DNA of 62,066 nucleotides, the filler included, from Hausera hauseri (Eukaryota): the NCBI GenBank assembly GCA_046269625.1. It is 11 parts of 11 records of this genome, joined end to end, with 100 filler letters (N's around TTAATTAATTAA, not from the genome) between each part and the next. Parts side by side here need not be neighbours in the genome. Positions count along the whole stretch, not along the records: positions 43,461 to 48,328 come from JBJURY010409699.1; 10 more parts are not named here. One strand, given 5' to 3'. The stretch's first letter is position 1. The number at the start of each line of letters is the position of its first letter. Under the pieces are notes generated by a model that was given only the letters and a program-made list of their open reading frames with translations, had not been told where the DNA came from and did no database searches. Below, one piece after another: positions 5,399-59,402 of this stretch. The position numbers were made by a program, and so were the translations under genes.

Positions 5399-8300
5399 TT
5401 ACAGTGCCACATGTCCGTGAGGTAGTGTATGGATTCCATCACCCCGGATCTACCTCTTGTCATCCATCCAGTCTAGGCTTTTCTTCGGTAATATTACTGT
5501 TTCAATGTTATTAGCCCTATACTGGATCCTTAGCATCTCTCATATAATATGAGTCTGGTCATCAAGAACTCTAACATAATCATTGAAGCCAATATTCTTG
5601 GCTAAGGTCGCCCATTGAACTCCTTTAGTCTGCTTCTTTACTTGGCCATATATATCAATGGCATACATTTTAGATCTAAGAGCTACAAATCTTAAGATGA
5701 TTGCTCCATTTACCTCGTATTTGAATTTCCCAAGGAATTTTTATTGGCTATTGAATAGTTGAGATGTTCCTTCGAATAATCCGAGGTATCCATGTGATGT
5801 TTCAATTGGGCAAAGTCCTTATAAATATCATCTGTATGGATCTGATAGATGAAAAAATCAGTATCAATATACATCGGCTGCGTAGACTCGAATCTGGGGA
5901 CAATGATGTCATAGTACAATTTGTACATCAGGGTCTTTGACAGGTCCAGTATTGCCATATCCACATATATTGGCTTGTTGAATTGCAAGGATGTTTTCAG
6001 CATATGGATGCTGACTACGTTCTCCGCATATATGTTGCTGCTGTGGAAGTTAGGCTTGGCAATGAGCTTCTTTCTCCGCTTCTACTCAGAGACCATTTCT
6101 GTGTTGATCCTGTTGCGGATACCTTCCATGGTCTTGCCAAAAAGGCGGTTGTTGTATAGCGTAAATTGATCCTTCGCAAAGTCGTTCTTGGCATTGGTCC
6201 GCAGCTTGATACTGAGATCTATGTACGGCTGCAGCCACATGCACTAGAAGAACCGCATGGCTCGATGGATCTTAATAACGCAGGGCCCATTTCTGACCGC
6301 TTGCTGGAGATTTATGTAGTGGACTACATATTTATCCCGATTTCCATGATGGCATAGTAACTTTTTTAATCCCCCATTCGGGGGTTTTTTGCTCTCAGGA
6401 AGGAAAGGCAGCTGCTCATACATAATGTGGATAGAAGCTAAATATTCCTTATCTACCTCCAGTATGTAGCCCGTATCTCCAGCGGGATCCAGGTCCAGTA
6501 TAGGGATGTCTTCGGGATGCTCAACCCACTTGAAGTAATCATATGGCAGTGGGGTGCACATTGCCCATCCATACAAGTTGTTGGCATCCAGATATAATAT
6601 ATATGAGGATTTCTTTGTTGGGTCACATTCGGCAATATGTTTGTTATTTGCAATACTATTCCGACGAATGGCCTGGAATATTCCACCTCTAATGCATCTC
6701 TCGATCATAAGGATCATATTACAATTCTTAATGATCTGCAGCCTAATACCCGTATAGCGCAACATTGCTGCCAAGCTCATTCCTGGAGCTGTAATAAAAT
6801 GAGCCGGATCCAATGCATGACTCTTCATTGTAACATCCCTGAAACTCTCAAAGATATCTGTCGGCAGCAGCAGCACGTCCCTCTTTAGGTATATGTTACT
6901 GTATTCTCCTAATGTTCGGCATTGGAATGCATGCCACACATTTTGAGCATTCTGGTAATCCATATCACTTATATCGCAATCAGAGAGGATATTGTAAAAA
7001 TCCGTCTTGGCAAGCAATGAGGTCTCATCCATTGTTTCCCATGAGGTTATGTAGTCATAAGGAAACACGCCTTTACCCTTGACGAGGCCAAATGCAGTGG
7101 GGAACAACTACTTCGTCTCCTTGAGTTCTTCTGCAGGGAGATTCTTCACTAAACTATCCAGTGACGAGCTCATGAAGCGGAAACTGTCTATGAAGCGAAG
7201 CCTGATTTTCTCAACATGCTTGGTAAAGGTGATGTATTTTTCCTCACTGTTGGGGATCACATCAATGTTTCCTTCAATGCTGCCCAGTTCCCGAACAATG
7301 AAGTGGGAATCATAGCCACTGAGGTTGTGAAACACTACAAGCACATATGTACATGTTTTGCAACGTTGATTGCAGTTGTTGCATGCTCCCCTTCGATATG
7401 CATCTGTAAAATGGCAGTGATCCCTGACTTTATAATTATCCTTAGTGAATGATTTTGAGCTCAAGTAACATGTTGCCTTGCGCCATTCATCTTCTTGTTT
7501 CCACGACATGCTCGTATTATCCTTATGCTCCTGAAGCATGTTTTCGAGCTTATGAGCCATGTCCTCACGTCTCTTCATGAAATGTGCTGCTGCGTCTGGA
7601 CCTCTGAATAGAAATGGTTCACTGTCCAGCCCTTTGCCATACATGCAATATGATGAGAGCTCATGATATTGGTATGCCGTTGTGATGCTTTGTTGGGAAT
7701 TTGGACTGCAACTCTGAATTGGACGCAGAATAGCCTCAAAGTCGCAAAAGATAACTATTGGGACCTTGATCTTCTTCTTGAACTCCTTGAATTCAATGTA
7801 ATCCTCGTTTAGAAATCCTGGCCTGATACAATAATTGTTGTTGCAGTACATCTTGTGCTCCTTCAGCTTCTCCGCAGCTAACTTTCCGCTGAAATGGGAC
7901 AAGCATCGTTTGCATATTTCGATTTTTTCCTTATATTTCGTAATTTTGGATCTGACTAAACGTTTAAAGTTCTTTATCCAGATTAAATGCCTCTTTTCAC
8001 CATCGTTTAGTAGAAGCAGATCCCTACGGTCTTCCAATTCAGCATCACATCTGCGGGGGATAGAATTTGTCCTCCTCATCTAATCCCAAGATATTGATTG
8101 ATATATTGTTGAGTCATCCGAATTTTTTGACTTCATCTATGGATGGTGGGAACTTGATACATTGGAAGTCATAGTTGTGCTGCACATCCTTATATAGCCA
8201 AACTCGTGAAGCATGATTTTGATCCGTTACGAGTTTTGATAGAATAGCATACATGAAACACATGTTGTCGTTATTATTGACATAGACACATGCTTTTTTA

Positions 8301-13813: not shown

Positions 13814-16800
13814 TATTTCAAAAGCCAACGCCCATACGCCCAACTCTTACTTCACCCCACCCACTTTCGCTTATCATCATTACATAAAAAAGCGATTTTT
13901 GTGTTCGTTATAGTATATAGCTGGTGCTCAATCGATCGTATGTTTGTTTGACAAACAGCCATTGATTGTCCTCCTCCTCCTTTGTCGTCCTCTGTCTTCT
14001 GCTGCCGCTACTTCATAGATACGGCGATAATTACGTGGCTTATTTCCGTCTAGGACAGTTGAACGCCCTCTGCGCGCATTTTCGGTCCACAGTCCGTCAG
14101 GAGACTATAGCACTTTGGGCGCAGGCATATCCATTCTCGATACTGAACACGGCCTTCGCTTTCATCCTTGAAGCAACTGATTTTGTTTGTGATGTCGTTG
14201 CTATACAGTGGATGATTCTGCGGTTAATTTGATGTTTACAGTAGTCCAAATGCCATCATTAGCCGGAGCAGGTGGTCGCGATTGTCGACTTTTAGTTTAA
14301 GGAAAAAGTTGTTTGTGCTACCGGCAACGATACTGATCTCACAGCCATCGAATATTTGCCGGTAACGTGCCAAGTCGCGATACTGGAGTTCGTACATTCG
14401 CAACTTGCTCAGGTCCAATACCACTTATCCGATATAGCTTGGTTGGTCCAGTACGACTTCTTCGATGTTTAACAGCACGGCGATCAGTCCATCGGCAATG
14501 TGCATTAACCGCCTAAACTGAGCCTTGCTCGTGTACGTAACCATACGCTTTTCGTTGATACATAGGCGCACATTGAGTCGCTTTTTGAGGTTCTCTACCG
14601 TTTTGCCGTAGAGAAAATTATTTTTCAACTTGTAATAATCCTTTTCAAATTTTGTACAAGCTGAGGCTCGTTTTTCTGAATTTCCGTCAATGTATGCCTT
14701 GAATATCGGTGCCTGATTGAATTTTATTGCGCGATGCAGCTGTGTGACACATACACCGAGATGCATGTAGAACTGTAGCAAACGCCAATGGACCACGTAA
14801 TTCAGCTTCGGCTCATACGTCGGGAAGAGTTTTTCACATTTGAGCCACCGGGCGGACATTGGCTGATTGGTGCGGCAGGCAATTGGTCCAAAGCGTCATG
14901 CAACTCATCCGGTACCACAAGATCAACTTCCATCAAGTAGCCGAATGAGCTGTTTTCTGCCTTGTCTGCTCTAGGTAAATTTTCCAATATTTCGAGATCT
15001 TGCTTGTCCGTTAACTATTCAAATGAACCGTACTTTAACGGTTGCTAAAGCGCCCAGCCGTACAGGTTATTAATGTCAGTGATGTGATGTTATCATTACA
15101 TGTTACGTGGTGCTTGTTGACAAATGTCATGCCGCCACGAATACCAATATCAAACAGTCTGTACATTTCTGGGTCTTGCAACAACTCAATGTCCTGGTTT
15201 GGTGATATCAGAACCAAAGCTCAACTCATTCCCGATATGGAGTAAAAGGTGAGAGGCTCCAGCCTATTTTCGGCCAACGCCTTAGTCCGAAATATCTGAA
15301 ACACATCGGCCAGCAAGTATACGTCCAGTTTCAGATACTGGAGCATGTAATCGAATAGGCTTCTTCAGCCGAGCTCTGACCAAGATTCCTGTGCTCTGCG
15401 ATATTTATCTTCTGTTATACTGGACCACTGCGGCAGCAATTCCTCTGTTGTCTGAAGCCGCTGGTACAATACAGCAAAGTCATACGGGAATATGTCTTTG
15501 TTACGTGCAATATGCATCGGGAACTGCGTTGATGTTAACGGAAAATCCGGCAAGGCATTTACCAACTTTGCTAGAGACTCATTGAGGAACTGTACTGAGT
15601 CAAAGAATCGCACCTGGAACCGGTTTATGCGTGCCGACAGAGACAGGTATTTCTCCATCGTTGTTGGAATTATGGACAGTTTCCAGTGTAAAAATCCATT
15701 AAAGACCCATTTCGGAATATGGTGACAATCATAACCCTGAAGTTATGAAATATCACCGGCAGAAATGGCCGCACACGCCGTGCTAAATTGCATGAATTGC
15801 ATGCTGCTCCCAGGTATCGTCGGGGAAAGTGGTCGTGATCAGGCATGAACCGTTCCTGTTTATCGAATGGTACTATTTTATAGCAGAGGTAGCATTTATC
15901 TGTGACTGCAAACGTAAGGCGTTCGTCTTCCTCTGTCCAGATCAAAGACTTAGTCCTGTTGTTACTGTATCACGGTGCGATTTCCGCTTCCACTATTGCC
16001 TCCAACTGGTGCAGAAAATCACGTACACAGTTCCATCCGTAGAAAACGTAAAACTGCGGTTGTCCCGCGGCTTTTATTGGTACTAGCAACATACCGACGG
16101 CGATTTCAATGCGCTTTTGATCGTATACGTTGTGCCGTGGTAAATTGCTTCAATATCGGCATAGACCACATATGCCGGACTGTCCGTTTTCGACCAGTCA
16201 CTGAATCTGAGTTTCTTTTTGACAGGCATGACGTACATTGTTGTTTCCGATACGCTTCTTCTGCATAGCGTCACGTGTTTTCTCATGTCGCTTCTGATCT
16301 GAAGCCATGCAAACATATAGAGCACCATTTTCAGCGTATTTGATTTTGGATGAACTGGTCATGGTCCATATTCAGCGGTCCATTAAACGTCCTTTCGGGT
16401 TCGGACTTCGACAGATTATGTCCACGTGAGGATTCTTGTAAATTTCCTCATCTGTCAGTATCTCTATTACTGAGTTGTACCGGAAAACCTTGATTGACAG
16501 CATCGGATTACGCCGTTCAAAAGCCGGAATGGTTTTGAATTTCATCGACATCCAGCTTTCATCAAAGTCCAATTTGGAAAAATACTGACGATGTTGTTTT
16601 GAACGATTTTCACGATTTTTGGGCACTTCGTCATATTTTAATATGGCTAAAATACGGTAAAGAAGACAGTATTCGTCGCTATTATTTTTTACATTGACTA
16701 CAGTTTTAGAGTGCTTTATGGCTGCAGGTGTCGGTATAAATGATCTTTCCGACAAGTAAATCATGTCACTTGACTTTGTAATGATAAAGCTGCGAGTAAC

Positions 16801-17670
16801 AGTCTTTACAATTCGCCATCCACTACCCTTTTTTGTGTAGTTGGCGATTTTCTCCTCGAGCTTTTCGCCAATCGCAGCGATAAAATCCTCGATATATGGT
16901 ACAGCTCAATGTGAAAAGTACCACTGTTTCCTGTCGCCTTGCACGTTTTCGAATTCTGAAAGTGCGCAATACTAAACTTTGCAGCTGTGGTGGTGTTGGA
17001 ATTTGTCCACTTCAGATTCCAACCGATTTCGCACAATGGATAGAACATGTATCAATTGCGTTGTTGTTGTTGTTGTCGCTGACATGTTTACTTTTATATC
17101 CATGTACGGTGTTTTCAGATCGTACATGACAGTAATGCGTGGTTCCTTCCCCTGTTGCTTCTGTTCCTGCTGATCCTCCTGCTGTTTTTGGTTTCTGTTG
17201 TTTTGCAAGTATTTGTCAAAGCCTGTTGATGCCCGACGTTTCCTACTTGTTGAAGGAATACTGCTGCTGCTGCTGCTTTATGATGCGTCCATTAATATTT
17301 GTTTTTTCGACCGCTTAAACTGGTTTAAGTGATCATGGTGCCGATTATAAAATTGTTCATAGTCAATTTGATCATCAGCTATAAAACAACCGGGGCACAC
17401 ATAGGCCCGTTTACTGTGCACCGTTGTAGTGCCATAGTATTGCTGCATTGCACTATGGCAAGCACAAACGACATGCACTTTATTGGTACAGTAACGTCGG
17501 TATGTGGAGCAATGCACAACCGTCATCTTCTTGGACCGCGTGAACGGACCGAGATGATGCTTGTGCGTCTCATAAAAGTCGGCGTACGGGCATATGTTTT
17601 GAATAAAACACACGGGACACAGGTATGGATCCTTGGCCGCTGAATAATATTTGGCCATTTTTTGTGGCAT
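13814..17670 (-). pseudogene. Second, divergent Polinton-type pPolB, decayed, with a probable N-terminal Zn-binding repeat region
   Basis: NVKNNSDEYCLLYRILA, YADIEA, DHDHF..YLGAACNSCNL, FPYDF, GIRGG, KLKNNFLYGKT, DDKR. ORF 17278-17670 is in frame with 16972-17208 across a single TAA. Confidence 0.92.
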
Positions 17671-43360: not shown

Positions 43361-43460
43361 NNNNNNNNNNNNNNNNNNNNNNNNNNNNNNNNNNNNNNNN
43401 NNNNTTAATTAATTAANNNNNNNNNNNNNNNNNNNNNNNNNNNNNNNNNNNNNNNNNNNN

Positions 43461-44137
43461 TTCTTCTTTTCAATTCGCTCCACTACATATGTATTCATCC
43501 CCTGAGAAGTACGGGGTCCTAAGAAAAATTTTCTTTCTTCCTCCTTGGCCTCTTGGAGCATCTTGTATAATTCATTTTCTTCCGAGCAGTTTTCAATCGC
43601 CATATAGATAACAAATTGACGCAGATTACATTCTTTCTCATCTTTGTCATCTTTTCTTACCTCTACCACCTGCACTTCCGGAACGGAATAAAGGTTTGGA
43701 TCAAGCCCCGGCAGGTTATACTGATGGCTGTCCAGTACTGCATGAATCTGCTGTAGTTCCTTAACTTTTACATATGGATATAATTCTGCTATCTTCTCAG
43801 GATATTCCATGACCTCTTTTAAGTCCTTTTCCTGAATGTATGCTCGTTTCTTTTGTTCTTCGTGAAGTGTCTTTAAATCGATCTTATCCGGTGATGAAGT
43901 ATCTACCTCTGTCAAATCCACTTGTGGCATTGGCATATATCCTTGCGGAAGCATATTAGAAATTGCGCAGTATAGCCGGCCTTCCCGGATTTTTCTTACC
44001 AAGGCAGCCGCCTGCTCATCCGAATTTCTTTCTGCATAATGATAGATCATAGAGCCAAATATCTTCTGCGAATCCGGAATTTGGGTCAGCCGCCCTGTCA
44101 GTTTCATACAAATCTCGAAAACATCTACCTTTTTCAT
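43461..44137 (-). CDS. Divergent type III CRISPR Cas5/Csm4-like RAMP; 3' end runs into the gap
   Basis: PDSQKIFGSM (cf. Csm4 SDTLFGAL), ISNMLP..YMPMP, KKRAYI and a C-terminal G-loop LGPRTSQGMN. It lies directly after csm3 and has an AGGAGG RBS. Confidence 0.7.
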
Positions 44138-44145
44138 CTATTCTG

Positions 44146-44151
44146 CCTCCT
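44146..44151 (-). promoter_or_regulatory. Shine-Dalgarno AGGAGG overlapping the csm3 stop codon
   Basis: TAGGAGGCAGAATAGATG on the minus strand. Confidence 0.8.
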
Positions 44152-44836
44152 ATCTGACATCAATCCGAACTCTGCCATAACCTCTGCTGCCAGATCCTCC
44201 AAGTCGATAAATACCTGAATTGAACTCCAGCAAAGATTTTTCTACAAACTCTCTAATGCCCTTTATCCCAAGTCTTTCCATTCGATAGAGCAGAATATCT
44301 CCGGTAAAAACAACTCCTGGACGCACCGTTTTATAGGTTCTTGGCTTTGCATTTATCTGGTCTTCCACAACATCAATTCTATTTTTGGAATCTATTGAAA
44401 ATAATTCTCTTTCTTCCTGGCCTTCTTTTACTATCAAATCATTAAAAATCAGTTTGGGGGCATCATTGAAGCCCTGTACTCCAAACAGGTATTCCGCAGA
44501 AACTTCTCTAATTGTCTTTGCAAACCGTTCGTTAATTCCTTCTTTTCTCTCAGGTTCAATCTTTTCTGCTGCTCTTTTCAAATTCTCTTTATTCTTTTCT
44601 TCTAGATCGCTAAAATATTTTTCATACGCGTGTGCAATCTCTTTTGCCGCGCTGTCAGACTCCATGTCGCTGATAATTCTGCGCAGCACGCCCTTTAAAG
44701 AAGAGGCAGGAATCAATGGCTTATTATGAAAATCGGTCTTCGTGTACTGATCTATGCCTCCAATCTCAAATGAGGATGGAGTATCCCCAATAAACAAGTT
44801 TGATAACGTCGTTAATTCTATCTTAATTCTTTCCAT
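44150..44836 (-). CDS. csm3: Type III CRISPR Cas7-family RAMP (Csm3-like crRNA backbone/RNase)
   Basis: LTTLSNLFIG, IGGID (putative catalytic Asp29), PLIPASSLKGVLR, LFG, LIFNDL, NRID, PR..VRPG..F and the G-rich loop LGGSGSRGYGRV. Confidence 0.92.
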   Translation of the reverse strand: MERIKIELTTLSNLFIGDTPSSFEIGGIDQYTKTDFHNKPLIPASSLKGVLRRIISDMESDSAAKEIAHAYEKYFSDLEEKNKENLKRAAEKIEPERKEGINERFAKTIREVSAEYLFGVQGFNDAPKLIFNDLIVKEGQEERELFSIDSKNRIDVVEDQINAKPRTYKTVRPGVVFTGDILLYRMERLGIKGIREFVEKSLLEFNSGIYRLGGSGSRGYGRVRIDVR

Positions 44837-44842
44837 CTCGTT

Positions 44843-44848
44843 CCTCCC
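44843..44848 (-). promoter_or_regulatory. Shine-Dalgarno GGGAGG for csm3
   Basis: GGGAGGAACGAGATG on the minus strand. Confidence 0.8.
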
Positions 44849-44859
44849 ATTAACAATGA

Positions 44860-45243
44860 TTATTTCGTTGACAGATAATGAATTTTAGCCCTGTTAAATC
44901 GATAAAAGATCATTAAGGCATCTACATATTCTTTCTTCCATAAGCCAGACTTTGCTGCCGTACTCTTGAAATCCTTTTCCCTAAAATACAAGTTCCCTGG
45001 CGGCTGTGTGCATTTTCTCTCTTCCTCTTCTTTGAGATAATCTTCTTCCGTCTTGGGATTCAAGGCTGTTATCATTACAGCCGCAGCATCAATATCCATA
45101 TCGAATCTTTTAAAGCGCATAAACATGGAGTTTGTAATTTGCAGAGTCTGGTAAACCTCTACAGAACTATCCTTATTGGGATTCGGGTTTGTATAAAAAG
45201 CCTTATTTACAAATATATCTGATTTGCAGTGTCCCCCTTTTAA
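44860..45243 (-). CDS. 5'-truncated type III subunit (Cas10 C-terminus or atypical Cas11/Csm2)
   Basis: The frame stays open 39 codons upstream of the tracked ATG, up to the junction with a eukaryotic repeat. It occupies the operon position before csm3 and ends in the helix EYVDALMIFYRF. Confidence 0.55.
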   Translation of the reverse strand, partial: LKGGHCKSDIFVNKAFYTNPNPNKDSSVEVYQTLQITNSMFMRFKRFDMDIDAAAVMITALNPKTEEDYLKEEEERKCTQPPGNLYFREKDFKSTAAKSGLWKKEYVDALMIFYRFNRAKIHYLSTK

Positions 45244-47278
45244 CTAAATATAAATATTGTCAGAGAGATATGCAAAATATAATGTTAATTAATAATATAA
45301 AAAACGTTTGCGAAGAAAGACCAAATAATGCTTTTGGAGCCATCAAATGTGACAGCATTTTGCACTTATTCAAATTTCCCCAATAAGTTCAACTACGTTC
45401 GTTCGACAATATTTTCATTCCTATTCCCAAGCTAATGTTTTTATTAAAATGTTCTGATGTTCTGTCAATCTAAAATGTATTGTAATGTAATTTTGGCTAT
45501 CATTTGACTGACCACAGACTATATTCCATGGATACTTTTCATTTCGTCAGAAAATAAAGGAAATGCTGTAAATCGAATATTAAAAGAATATTAGCTCATG
45601 AAAAGTAATGAAAATTTTGTAAAAATTGAAAATTTCTAAGCATAGTGGGGAAATTTGAACAAGTGCGAAATGCTGTTACATTTACATTCGCTTTCTCAGT
45701 GAATATTATATTTTGCACATTTTTGAATATTTGTTATAAAAAATCCAGATTTACTGTAAAATTTGTTCTCACAAAATACGAATCTTGGAAGCAATCACAA
45801 AATTCCATGAGATTGATTTCTTAACAGCCTCATCGAAACCATTGTGCGGTCTGTTAGAAGGATCTTAATTGGATTTTTTAGAAGTTACGAAAAAATGACA
45901 TGAAAGAGAAAAAGTGTTGAACATTGTCATCTGTATATAGATTATTTCTGCTAACCAGCTTTGTTATTATTTAACATCTTTTGATCTAACCATCCCTTTA
46001 GACTCCACAAATAATTATTTCCGAATACAACAAATTTGTTTCTAATATGGTCTCTCTGATATGCATAGATAACACATTCAAGGAATCCCTTAGCACTTAT
46101 CTAAAATTCCCCAACATATCATGTACCAGTATGAAGAATTGGTCAGTAAATATGGGTACTCTATTTTCCAAACTGGCTTTATCGGAAAGCCAACAGAAAA
46201 TTTATTTTGTTTACATACGCGAAGTGCTTTCTTTTCTCAAAGACGATGATATCGATAACTTATCTCGTTTCCACATTCATTTGATGCCCTGTGTTGATAT
46301 TATTAAATCAGCCATTTTTAACAAAATCCAAGATCTTTGTGAAATTTGTCCAGATTTAACAGTAGAAATTCAGTCAAATGAAATAAGTCATTTGAAGTGC
46401 ACATTAGGTTTTTTGTTTGAGTTAAGTTCCTCTGTTTACTTGTTTTCCAATAGCTGATTACTCGAATGGTCTTTTGAATCTAACAGAATGCGTTAATATG
46501 TGTACGAATCAAAATAGACAAAGTCAATCACAATCAGAACCAACTACACCGGTAAAACTCAGCAAACGGTCTTCGTTATTCGAACAACTGAGCAAAAGGG
46601 TTTCAGAATTCGAAAGTTGTATAAATCAAATCAAAAAAGATGCGCATTAATTACTTTGTTGTTGTTTTTTTTTGTATGAAATAAAATGTATAAATAAAAG
46701 TCAATGCGGTGTATTTCTCTATTTATTCATTTGAGTTATTTATCGTCATTGAAATACTAGTTAGACATCAAGTTTCTTTTGGACCATATTTCGGATTGGA
46801 GCTACATCTCGTTGAATCTAAACCAATGGATATTATTTCATCATACAAAATTTTTGCGTGATTTAATGGAAATATATACTGTAAAAATTAATACAGGTTT
46901 AGCTCATTTAGCACTCAAATTGACGTTCCTGAAGATTGAGCGATAACAGAAACACTTTCCCTTTTTTAAATATTTTATTGCTACCTTGAAGTAAAGAATG
47001 AACAAAACAATGATATTTCATTTTAATTTGCAGACATTCTGGTTCATTGAACAAAATTCTATCATTTTTTTGAAGAAACATAACTTTATTGTAAAACGCT
47101 GATTTTGACGAAATTCATCACAGTTCGGTAATGTTACACACTGATTTCAAAAATGGCACATCTTTGGCACTTATCCAGGATTTTCAGATTTTATATGCTT
47201 TTTTTTAATATCGGTGTATCCCAACATAAAACCGGTATAGTACAATTCGACTTACGCAAACTATTGCCACGTTTCGGG

Positions 47279-47410
47279 TTTGATATTGAAACAATAAAAA
47301 GTGGTAAATTTGTTTATATTTCAAATTAATTTACTTATTGATACGAAACTTTTTTCGTGAATATAAAAAATTTTATACAAAAATACTCTTTTATTGTTTC
47401 AATATCAAAT
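47279..47410. repeat. Short inverted repeat (MITE-like)
   Basis: TTTGATATTGAAACAATAAAA ... TTTTATTGTTTCAATATCAAA. Confidence 0.65.
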
Positions 47411-48457
47411 TCAAAATAATGTGCAATTTTTGCCATTGAAATAAAAAAGTTTTCCATACACAAAAAAGTTTGTGTAAAGTTGAGTCGAAAGAAAATTTTT
47501 GTCTATTTCTTTATTTCATATTAGGAAAATACTTAAGCAAGAAGTACCGATATTGGAAATAATTATTATCCAGAACTCAAAAATTTTCATATGTTGGCAC
47601 AAATATTTAAATTCAGCATATATAAGTATAATTTGTTAGATTTGATATCATCAGCATTCTATCACAGATGAGTCAAAAATAGCATAATCGATTTGATTGA
47701 CTTAGAAACAAATCAATTTACGAGATTTTTTCAAAAATGACTAAGTCAGGCTGAAATATAAAATGTTATTCGGATGAAATGTTAACATTTCTGGGAACAT
47801 TACTGTATTTTAGCATTTTCAAGCTACCTACATTGAAAACGTATATATGTATATATTTATTGATTAACTATTTTTTAAAACCATTATTTCCATCACAATA
47901 TAACTTCCTTCTAACAAGATAATTTTTTACAATTTGGAGTAAGTCTGACAAATCTAGACAACCGTGGGAAAATACAATGTGTATAATTAGACAGAATCAG
48001 ATAAGTTTGTTAAACGTGGAAAAATCAGGATCCACAGCTACGACCAAATTATGCACATGAAACAAAATGGTGCCAAAAACTATTTTAGATTATTTTTCAT
48101 CAAAACGCCAAATCGATGGATGTACTGCCATAAAAAGCAAAAAATTAAAGTTGTTACTAAAATTTTGGAGAAATTATCATGAGAAACTTGACGCGAAAAA
48201 TAAACTTAGAAAATTTGAAAATCTACTGGAGCTGTTGAAGGAGAAATCAGTGCTTTATTGTTATATTTACATCATTGAGGCGTCTTGAGAAGAAAATCAA
48301 CAGCTACGGTAATATGAAGACATTTCATNNNNNNNNNNNNNNNNNNNNNNNNNNNNNNNNNNNNNNNNNNNNTTAATTAATTAANNNNNNNNNNNNNNNN
48401 NNNNNNNNNNNNNNNNNNNNNNNNNNNNTTTCTATTCGCTACTTCAATTTTATTGAA

Positions 48458-57650: not shown

Positions 57651-58436
57651 TTATTCAGATACTCGAGCTACATCGCAACTCAGGTTGACCAATAATTTCA
57701 GAACAACTTTCTCCAATGTTTCCACAGCTACACGGATATTCTCAATTCCTACTTTAATTCTCACGGATATGTGAACTTTAATGTTCAAGAGAGCTTCAAG
57801 GATTGCCTTGACGACAATAAGAACCTTGGCAACTGCAGCTTTCAAATTCAGTGATAAGACATCTCTGAGAATTTCCAAAAGACCTCCACGTAATAAATAG
57901 AATACTGGTCTTAACAGTCCATTCAATGGAATAATTCCTTCTGTTAATCCAAGAACATTGCACAACAATCCACTGACTAATCCACCTTCTTTGAGCAATT
58001 CTGCCAACAATCCATGTTTTCCAATAACTGCTTCTAGTAAACCACCGACTAAACCATGTGGACCAAGCAAAGCACCAACAATGCCTTTAGGTCCAAGAAG
58101 ACCATGCAGAAGTCCTCCTAACAGGCCTCCTTTGTCAAGAAGACCACCGAGAATACCTCGTTCACCCAACAAAATATCCAACAGACCTCCTTTACTTCCA
58201 AGTAAGCTATTCAACAAACCACCAAGGAGACCTTTTGGTCCGAGTAATCCACCTAATAGACCTCCTTCTCCACCAAGAAGACCGCCAAGAAGTCCACCTC
58301 CTTTTCCACCTCCAAGAAGACCGCCAAGAAGTCCGCCTTCTTCACCACCTCCACCTCCACCTAGAATACCACCGAGTAGAGCACTTGTGTTGGAAACAAA
58401 CAACACAAAGAAAGCAGCGCAAATTATGAATTTCAT
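57651..58436 (-). CDS. Secreted Gly/Leu-rich (GGLLGGLL repeat) protein, 261 aa
   Basis: Intact single ORF with signal peptide MKFIICAAFFVLFVSNTSA, more than 10 GLLGG-type units and an aliphatic C-terminal region. Confidence 0.85.
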   Translation of the reverse strand: MKFIICAAFFVLFVSNTSALLGGILGGGGGGEEGGLLGGLLGGGKGGGLLGGLLGGEGGLLGGLLGPKGLLGGLLNSLLGSKGGLLDILLGERGILGGLLDKGGLLGGLLHGLLGPKGIVGALLGPHGLVGGLLEAVIGKHGLLAELLKEGGLVSGLLCNVLGLTEGIIPLNGLLRPVFYLLRGGLLEILRDVLSLNLKAAVAKVLIVVKAILEALLNIKVHISVRIKVGIENIRVAVETLEKVVLKLLVNLSCDVARVSE

Positions 58437-59402
58437 GGATAAAATTTTTCTGGAAATATTTCCTTTTTATAGCTTTAGTCAACTTTGTAATAGTCTAGAG
58501 TACCGTCGGAAAACGACTTCTTTTTGACAAGCATGTATACAACGCATGGCATAGTTCCACTTATGACACTTTGCACAATCTCGAACTTCAAGTTTAAACG
58601 ATTGGCTCTTTTTCTCTAGTAGTTTCTGGAGAAAGGTTTTGTGTTAAACGTAGACGTTTAAATTGGATTAAATAAGTATATTTCTACATACAGAAAATTT
58701 CCATTTATTGCATATTAATTTCGTTCTAAAATTATGAAACTGGCTATCAATGACTCGCTGTAAATGTTTTAACGAATTTGTTTCATTTGTGTTGATGTAT
58801 ACGATTAGCATAATTTATTAAAAATAACATCTTGTTTGATGAAACAGTTATTTTTAAGACTACAATTAGTGTTTAGTTTTATTTATTCCATTGCGTTTAT
58901 GAAAAAACAACCGATTACGTAATGTTTTACTTATTGATTTTGATTATAATAAAGTACAAAATTGATACAAATATTGCTTACTGATGAATGAAACAAATAA
59001 TAACATGAAGTTGCAAGAATGAAACAAATTGGCAAAGGTCACACAAGTTTGATACATTCTAAGTACATTAAATACAAATTTAAATAGGGTTACCTAATAT
59101 TTTGTAGGCATGCTCTTTGCAGACAACTGCCTTGATCCTGTGTGACATAGAAGATGAAATTTTGACTGAATTTTGGAGTTTCGTCTGTTTTCCAGGTCAA
59201 TCGGAACTTTGAAATTAAATCACTATATGATGTAGAATGCATTGCATGTACTCATTTCTTGAGAAGAACAAAACAATTTTCCATTGGGTTCAAGTCTGGT
59301 AAATTTTTCGGCCAGGAGTTCAGAATGTTAATACCTTCATTCACAATACAGCATTATTACCTAATTTGTATAAGATGGTTTCTGTAACAAATTATATATA
59401 TA

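Follow-up and report, generated by a model that had tools for sequence, protein, structure and literature searches.

The stretch of DNA analyzed here, called the window below, is 62,066 nucleotides (nt) long and comes from the assembly GCA_046269625.1 of Hausera hauseri. At positions 43461-45220 it carries a segment which, as we can say with good confidence, is part of a bacterial nucC-cas10-csm3-csm4-csm5-cas6-array locus, likely a III-A2 variant of type III CRISPR-Cas from [Clostridium] scindens, and likely mis-assembled; the intact locus is predicted to be a phage-RNA sensor triggering DNA destruction by NucC. The fragment in the window is genuine but incomplete, is probably a contaminant, and belongs to a variant that has likely been named already. 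No function is expected of it in the animal assembly, as the contig contains neither nucC nor the cyclase, and csm5, cas6, and the array are lacking as well. The features are as follows:

43461..45220, minus strand: bacterial segment; its left end is the contig end, its right end an abrupt junction
44860..45219, minus strand: 3' part of cas10 encoding residues 544-662, which lie within the ~170-amino acid (aa) C-terminal extension beyond domain 4
44150..44836, minus strand: csm3 (Cas7), complete, 228 aa; Pfam RAMPs 9.6e-14, best NCBIfam and PADLOC matches Csm3
43461..44137, minus strand: csm4 (Cas5), first 225 of 326 codons; matched by Csm4 profiles and cut by the contig end
45220..45221, no strand: junction between bacterial and animal-type DNA, with an identity break and a tetranucleotide shift

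The genes of the segment

The three minus-strand frames are co-oriented and separated by gaps of 23 and 12 nt, and Shine-Dalgarno (SD)-like sites precede csm3 (GGGAGGA) and csm4 (AGGAGG), just as an earlier note on this DNA had described (three co-oriented genes 12-23 nt apart, with strong SD sites before two of them). The frame upstream of csm3, to which the note had given at least 127 open codons, is indeed of that length: its last 119 codons are the end of Cas10 and its first eight lie beyond 45220 and are non-bacterial. It shows 86% identity with residues 544-662 of a 662-aa Cas10 (P0123) and is identical over 119 aa to the Cas10 of L080, one of the five loci (L080-L084) obtained in a metagenome scan. 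The separate unknown subunit proposed to precede csm3 was therefore rejected. The "short Csm4" of the same note was also abandoned, since the contig stops at 43461, 225 codons into the frame, and the full-length protein in L080, which is 99.77% identical over the segment, has 326 aa. Both the unknown subunit and the short Csm4 are assembly effects.

The G-loop of Csm4 (LGPRTSQGMN, residues 206-215) is atypical, as had been noticed, and so it is family-wide: the consensus is LGxRASQGLN in the family alignment, which holds 19 relatives. Its position is normal, the loop lying at about residues 192-205 in two canonical Csm4s of 313-323 aa. Longer Csm4s occur at L022:10706-11854 (382 aa), L023:10686-12089 (467 aa), and L099:4856-6115 (419 aa), those of L022 and L023 having a long charged insert. 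In Csm3, the catalytic GGID aspartate is retained, as the note had claimed: D29 is invariant in all 43 aligned relatives, where the motif reads GGID (27 sequences), GGVD (15), or SGVD (one). A long charged insert separates the SSLKG helix from the LFG motif.

Origin of the segment

Positions 43461-45220 show 99.77% identity with L080 and L081 (4 mismatches in 1760) and 94-96% identity with L082-L084, and in all five loci the identity breaks off at 45216-45220. Three of the four differences from L080/L081 are alleles present in L083/L084, the one at 43530 being private to the window. The exact Csm3 of the window is recorded on 125 contigs of up to 369 kb, and its named cluster mates are mostly [Clostridium] scindens. 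Neither the single-sequence scan of genome contigs nor a Csm3 search of plasmids and phages gave a match, and none of nine Csm3 pattern matches in viral contigs was confirmed.

The tetranucleotide score is bacterial-like up to the break and changes to window-like within the 250-nt bin that begins at 45211. Beyond the break lies AT-rich DNA, the composition score of which is like that of the remaining window, and a palindromic repeat, partial copies of which are present at other window sites, begins within ~35 nt:

45254..45745, no strand: high-copy imperfect palindrome with nested inverted repeats, presumably resembling a miniature inverted-repeat transposable element

Of the four runs compared, X2 gave no match and X5 a single 33-nt piece; in X13, one contig runs past 45220 with the bacterial sequence continuing, and in X15, which may be the source of the window and is not independent of it, overlapping contigs, joints, and loose ends accumulate in large numbers at the repeat. 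The X15 piece reaching 45220 (record 7) aligns over 418 of its 425 letters, the seven extra letters being unaligned to the window. None of the 13 pieces listed from the four runs, the contigs of which drop rare forms, bridges 45220, and no run had half of the junction-spanning words, the best share being 0.42. High-copy repeats are a common place for assembly mis-joins. Judging from these sequence comparisons, the segment is likely a bacterial contaminant joined to animal DNA at the repeat in an assembly chimera.

A very recent horizontal insertion of the bacterial segment into the animal genome, next to a mobile repeat, would fit with the junction lying within one contig with no N gap, the transposon-like repeat flanking it, the allele at 43530 being private among the five sequences compared, and both halves occurring in X15 with near-zero differences from the window; such an event is nevertheless very improbable in view of the 99.77% identity without any frameshift or stop, the seven unaligned letters of the X15 piece ending at 45220, the 4.9-kb leftover contig with its left end in bacterial DNA, and the frequency of assembly errors at high-copy repeats. 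The probable chimera could itself be mistaken for gene transfer.

The complete locus and its relatives

The cassette had been described as compact; in L080 it comprises six genes plus an array, in the order nucC-cas10 (662 aa)-csm3-csm4 (326 aa)-csm5 (273 aa)-cas6-15 repeats, the repeats ending in ATTGAAAG. We compared 28 loci, namely L001-L023 (the 23 closest of 79) and L080-L084, which include the near-copies L080/L081, L083/L084, and L005/L006, along with seven further loci found independently via a profile of the Cas10 extension. In all 35 of them cas10 is directly followed by csm3, with no csm2 between the two genes. The distance from cas10 to csm3 lies between -71 and 42 nt in all of the 28 loci but L012, where it amounts to 158 nt and includes an N gap. 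The nucC gene precedes cas10 in 27/28 (L082 is too short), csm5 was labelled in 25/28 and cas6 in 21/28, and 15 of 27 loci gave an array in a simple scan. The seven additional loci have the same gene order and all carry NucC, in one case fused to Cas10 and in another as a fragment. The extension profile matched 6/401 and 3/401 sampled genomes, the centre genome being counted in each.

All 23 named hosts belong to the Bacillota, in line with the non-canonical type III module of a Firmicutes-like bacterium which the earlier note had suggested, and Cas1 was matched in 16 of 21 host genomes. In a quick tree of Csm3 (82 rows, none dropped, midpoint root), the 24 clade members all fall to the same side of a long branch with an SH-aLRT (approximate likelihood-ratio test) support of 100. 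Csm5 is short in this clade (about 250-310 aa) and is already fitted by a PADLOC profile, PDLC01115, with values of 1e-52 to 1e-82 in 5/5 tested. Among the parts which the note had listed for inspection in full loci, csm5, cas6, and the array are present, csm2 is absent, and Cas10 has an AGDD motif and no HD domain. Of the arrangement named there as speaking against a variant, i.e., a canonical III-A operon with Csm2 upstream and Csm4 over its full length downstream, the full-length Csm4 was found; the operon differs from canonical III-A, and no Csm2 profile matched the frame that ends cas10.

A second, partial nucC plus cas10 fragment lies upstream of the intact operon at L022:4609-6546, and broken copies were found at L082:15-1656 (cas10 in two frames), L104:7034-8015 (csm4 in two frames), and L100:9359-9592 (a 77-aa nucC fragment). 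Upstream of nucC, L080:573-5953 encodes a serine-recombinase-like frame and a VaFE-repeat surface protein, and the flanks of L080 differ from those of L081/L084, which hints at a mobile-element border. After the array comes a 337-aa frame (L080:14995-16008) which matched no PADLOC or NCBIfam family; it is also present in L081, L083, and L084 and was not found in L001-L023. Close to its trailer end, the L080 array contains one spacer in tandem duplicate (L080:14359-14490).

Cas10 and the missing small-subunit gene

The cyclase motif is AGDD in 59 of 61 Cas10s, EGDD in one, and VGDD in one, and the clade is predicted from its sequences to synthesize cyclic oligoadenylate (cOA); AGDD has been listed as an active variant (PMC11229360). 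Cas10 lacks the N-terminal HD domain: residue 1 of the model aligns to residue 231-264 of Csm1, and no more than 3 of the 61 proteins have an HD dipeptide among their 60 N-terminal residues. The model aligns to solved Csm1 over residues 1-~494 only, and past the end of solved Cas10s the protein carries a conserved ~170-aa domain which is always fused. The length after domain 4 amounts to 159-237 aa in 61/61, and the extension lies inside a frame of 656-968 aa in 9/9 genome matches. It is mostly helical in the model, with a beta-hairpin at residues 547-568. The literature searched, the coverage of which excluded most subscription journals, yielded no description of the extension and no experimental study of the variant.

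The guess in the earlier note that csm2 was either missing or fused to Cas10 is borne out in so far as no separate csm2 exists and the frame before csm3 is a fused part of Cas10, which may or may not be Csm2 itself. A bolder reading, to which we give somewhat less than an even chance, would have the III-A2 small subunit either fused to Cas10 in a single diverged copy or supplanted by a novel domain, leaving a four-protein, cOA-signalling RNA sensor that works without a Cas11 filament. A preprint of 2020 states that extant type III systems contain no fusions of large and small subunits (bioRxiv 2020.04.18.045682). The loss of Csm2 abolishes in vivo interference in two other III-A systems (PMC10289348), and a substitute is therefore expected; the Cas10 extension may play this part.

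That the extension is a diverged, fused Cas11 (a Csm2 homolog) in single copy is possible, if somewhat unlikely. It occupies the place of csm2 in canonical III-A (L087, L088), its size is similar to that of Csm2, it is mostly helical, and it never leaves the cas10 frame. Among 21 host genomes, Pfam Csm2 was matched in no more than two, each time within a separate canonical III-A operon, and Cmr5 in one. Csm2 is all-helical, whereas the model has its beta-hairpin, and a single copy would be unable to form the 2-3-copy Csm2 filament. III-A2 has been described as having no identifiable Cas11 (PMC12669027).

It seems rather doubtful that no Cas11 is needed, the enlarged Csm3 insert or Csm5 doing its job and the extension serving some other purpose such as NucC docking. 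The Csm3 insert does measure 62-76 aa in 42 of the 43 aligned relatives measured, with about 40% charged residues, the inserts of two Csm3s from canonical III-A measuring 29 and 34 aa; the fusion of NucC to the N-terminus of Cas10 in P0141 and L098 suggests physical coupling, and one Csm complex stayed active in vitro without Csm2 (PMC10289348). However, three of the 17 distant Cas7s that could be measured also have inserts of 56-63 aa, and insert length alone is therefore not special, while the NucC fusions lie at the end of Cas10 opposite to the extension.

A free small subunit made from an internal start within cas10, as in type I-D, has a precedent in large subunits of systems without a cas11 gene (bioRxiv 2020.04.18.045682), and some start codon is present at residues 485-525 in 25 of 30 genes, but it is highly unlikely here, as the best start-codon column at the domain boundary (484, inside the last helix of domain 4) is shared by 16/30 genes only and an SD of -6 kcal/mol or better occurs within residues 485-525 in 1/30, as compared with a clear SD at the true start in 23/23. 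In the III-A systems tested, interference requires Csm2, yet the present Bacillota clade shows all the signs of activity in its absence. What stands out as a lead is the conserved Cas10 extension, a specific and deletable candidate for a Cas11 substitute.

NucC, spacers, and the predicted response

The PADLOC match to NucC reached 2.6e-77, and the catalytic motif is ECKS in 26 of 33 matched frames and QCKS in seven. The QxK proteins are those of L080 (7082-7987), L081, L083, L084, L011, L099, and L101; the NucC of C. scindens is presumed to be active. The N-terminal NucC-Cas10 fusions, L098:6521-9421 and P0141, are 966 and 978 aa long.

The arrays of L080, L084, and L083 each match a single phage among 50,697 records, the C. 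scindens phage phiCs5676-1, with spacer identities of 97, 89, and 97%, respectively. If array and cas genes are read in the same direction, the best spacer matches are antisense to annotated phage genes, endolysin included, in three cases out of three, for which there would be a 1-in-8 chance without any bias. This polarity is consistent with RNA targeting and is not proof of it. C. scindens and the phage matched by its spacers form a ready native test pair.

Cas6 processing, cleavage by Csm3, target-dependent cOA synthesis, and activation of NucC by cyclic triadenylate (cA3) are established in type III biology (PMC11229360). In the present locus, Cas6 would cut the array transcript into CRISPR RNA (crRNA) with a ATTGAAAG 5' tag, on which Cas10, Csm4, several Csm3 copies, and Csm5 would assemble. 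Pairing with phage mRNA would lead Csm3 to cleave the RNA and would switch on the cyclase (AGDD) of the HD-less Cas10, the product of which, likely cA3, would activate NucC; DNA would be degraded and the infected cell halted. The C-terminal extension of Cas10 would probably stabilize the target side of the complex in Csm2's stead. A smaller cOA-making effector with NucC would suit RNA detection.

Composition of the window

The window consists of 11 contigs of 4-14 kb each, linked by ten identical 100-nt spacers composed of 44N-TTAATTAATTAA-44N, a six-frame stop linker standing between the N runs:

43361..43460, no strand: artificial contig spacer, one of the 10 identical spacers in the window

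Among nine window frames scanned, the family matches included collagen, long terminal repeat (LTR)-retrotransposon reverse transcriptase, RNase H, integrase, BACK domain, and type B DNA polymerase. These matches point to leftover contigs of an animal assembly rather than a bacterial genome. Contig 43461-48328 carries the CRISPR genes at its left end; a 151-codon open frame in its animal-type portion (46002-46457) gave neither family nor homolog in family and homology searches. Elsewhere, decayed frames resembling type B DNA polymerase (6244-8079 and 14425-16905; family match for 7111-8079, the remainder judged by eye) probably belong to Polinton/Maverick-type elements, and a 271-codon Gly/Leu-rich repetitive frame with GGLLGG repeats is present on the minus strand at 57651-58466.

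Classification and comparison with known systems

Variant III-A2 was named in the 2025 classification (Makarova et al., PMC12669027, section 8) as a distinct clade, defined on the Cas10 tree, with no identifiable Cas11, predicted cOA signalling, NucC, and a Cas7 which keeps its aspartate. All four traits were found here (no cas11 gene, a cOA motif, NucC, and the Cas7 catalytic aspartate), and the locus likely corresponds to this variant. Since the variant has apparently been named already, the surprise is limited. No difference from III-A2 was noted; the available text of PMC12669027 is silent on the Cas10 extension, on the Csm3 insert, and on C. scindens, and nothing on this clade was seen in the available part of PMC6546367.

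Several points weigh against the overall interpretation. The III-A2 assignment draws on traits given in the text of PMC12669027, and a Bacillota locus with a nucC-cas10 fusion has been called type III-D (PMC11229360). All four effector proteins score under the NCBIfam III-A cut-offs, although Csm3, Csm4, and Csm5 are the best profile matches. The cA3 product we infer from the neighbouring gene only, and the four C. scindens-like NucCs have QxK, not ExK, which leaves their nuclease activity not assured. As regards origin, the difference at 43530 (K203) is absent from all four loci covering this position, and run X15 has both contig halves with the window's own letters, which an insertion would also show.

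The NucC-Cas10 fusions of L098 and P0141 resemble the one described in PMC11229360. With the Cas10d/Cas11d of type I-D (bioRxiv 2020.04.18.045682) the clade shares a C-terminal addition to the large subunit and the lack of a separate cas11 gene; unlike type I-D, it has neither a conserved internal start nor a conserved SD where the domain begins, and it keeps the cyclase motif. An HD-less Cas10 coupled to NucC is shared with the III-B system of Vibrio metoecus (VmeCmr, PMC8682760), which is a Cmr-type module, whereas the subunits here are of the Csm type and no small-subunit gene is present. The csm3, csm4, and csm5 subunits are those of canonical III-A (L. lactis, S. thermophilus, L087/L088), from which the clade differs in having no csm2 and no HD domain, AGDD in place of GGDD, a ~170-aa extension after domain 4, a short Csm5, the Csm4 loop LGxRASQGLN, and NucC where canonical III-A has Csm6.
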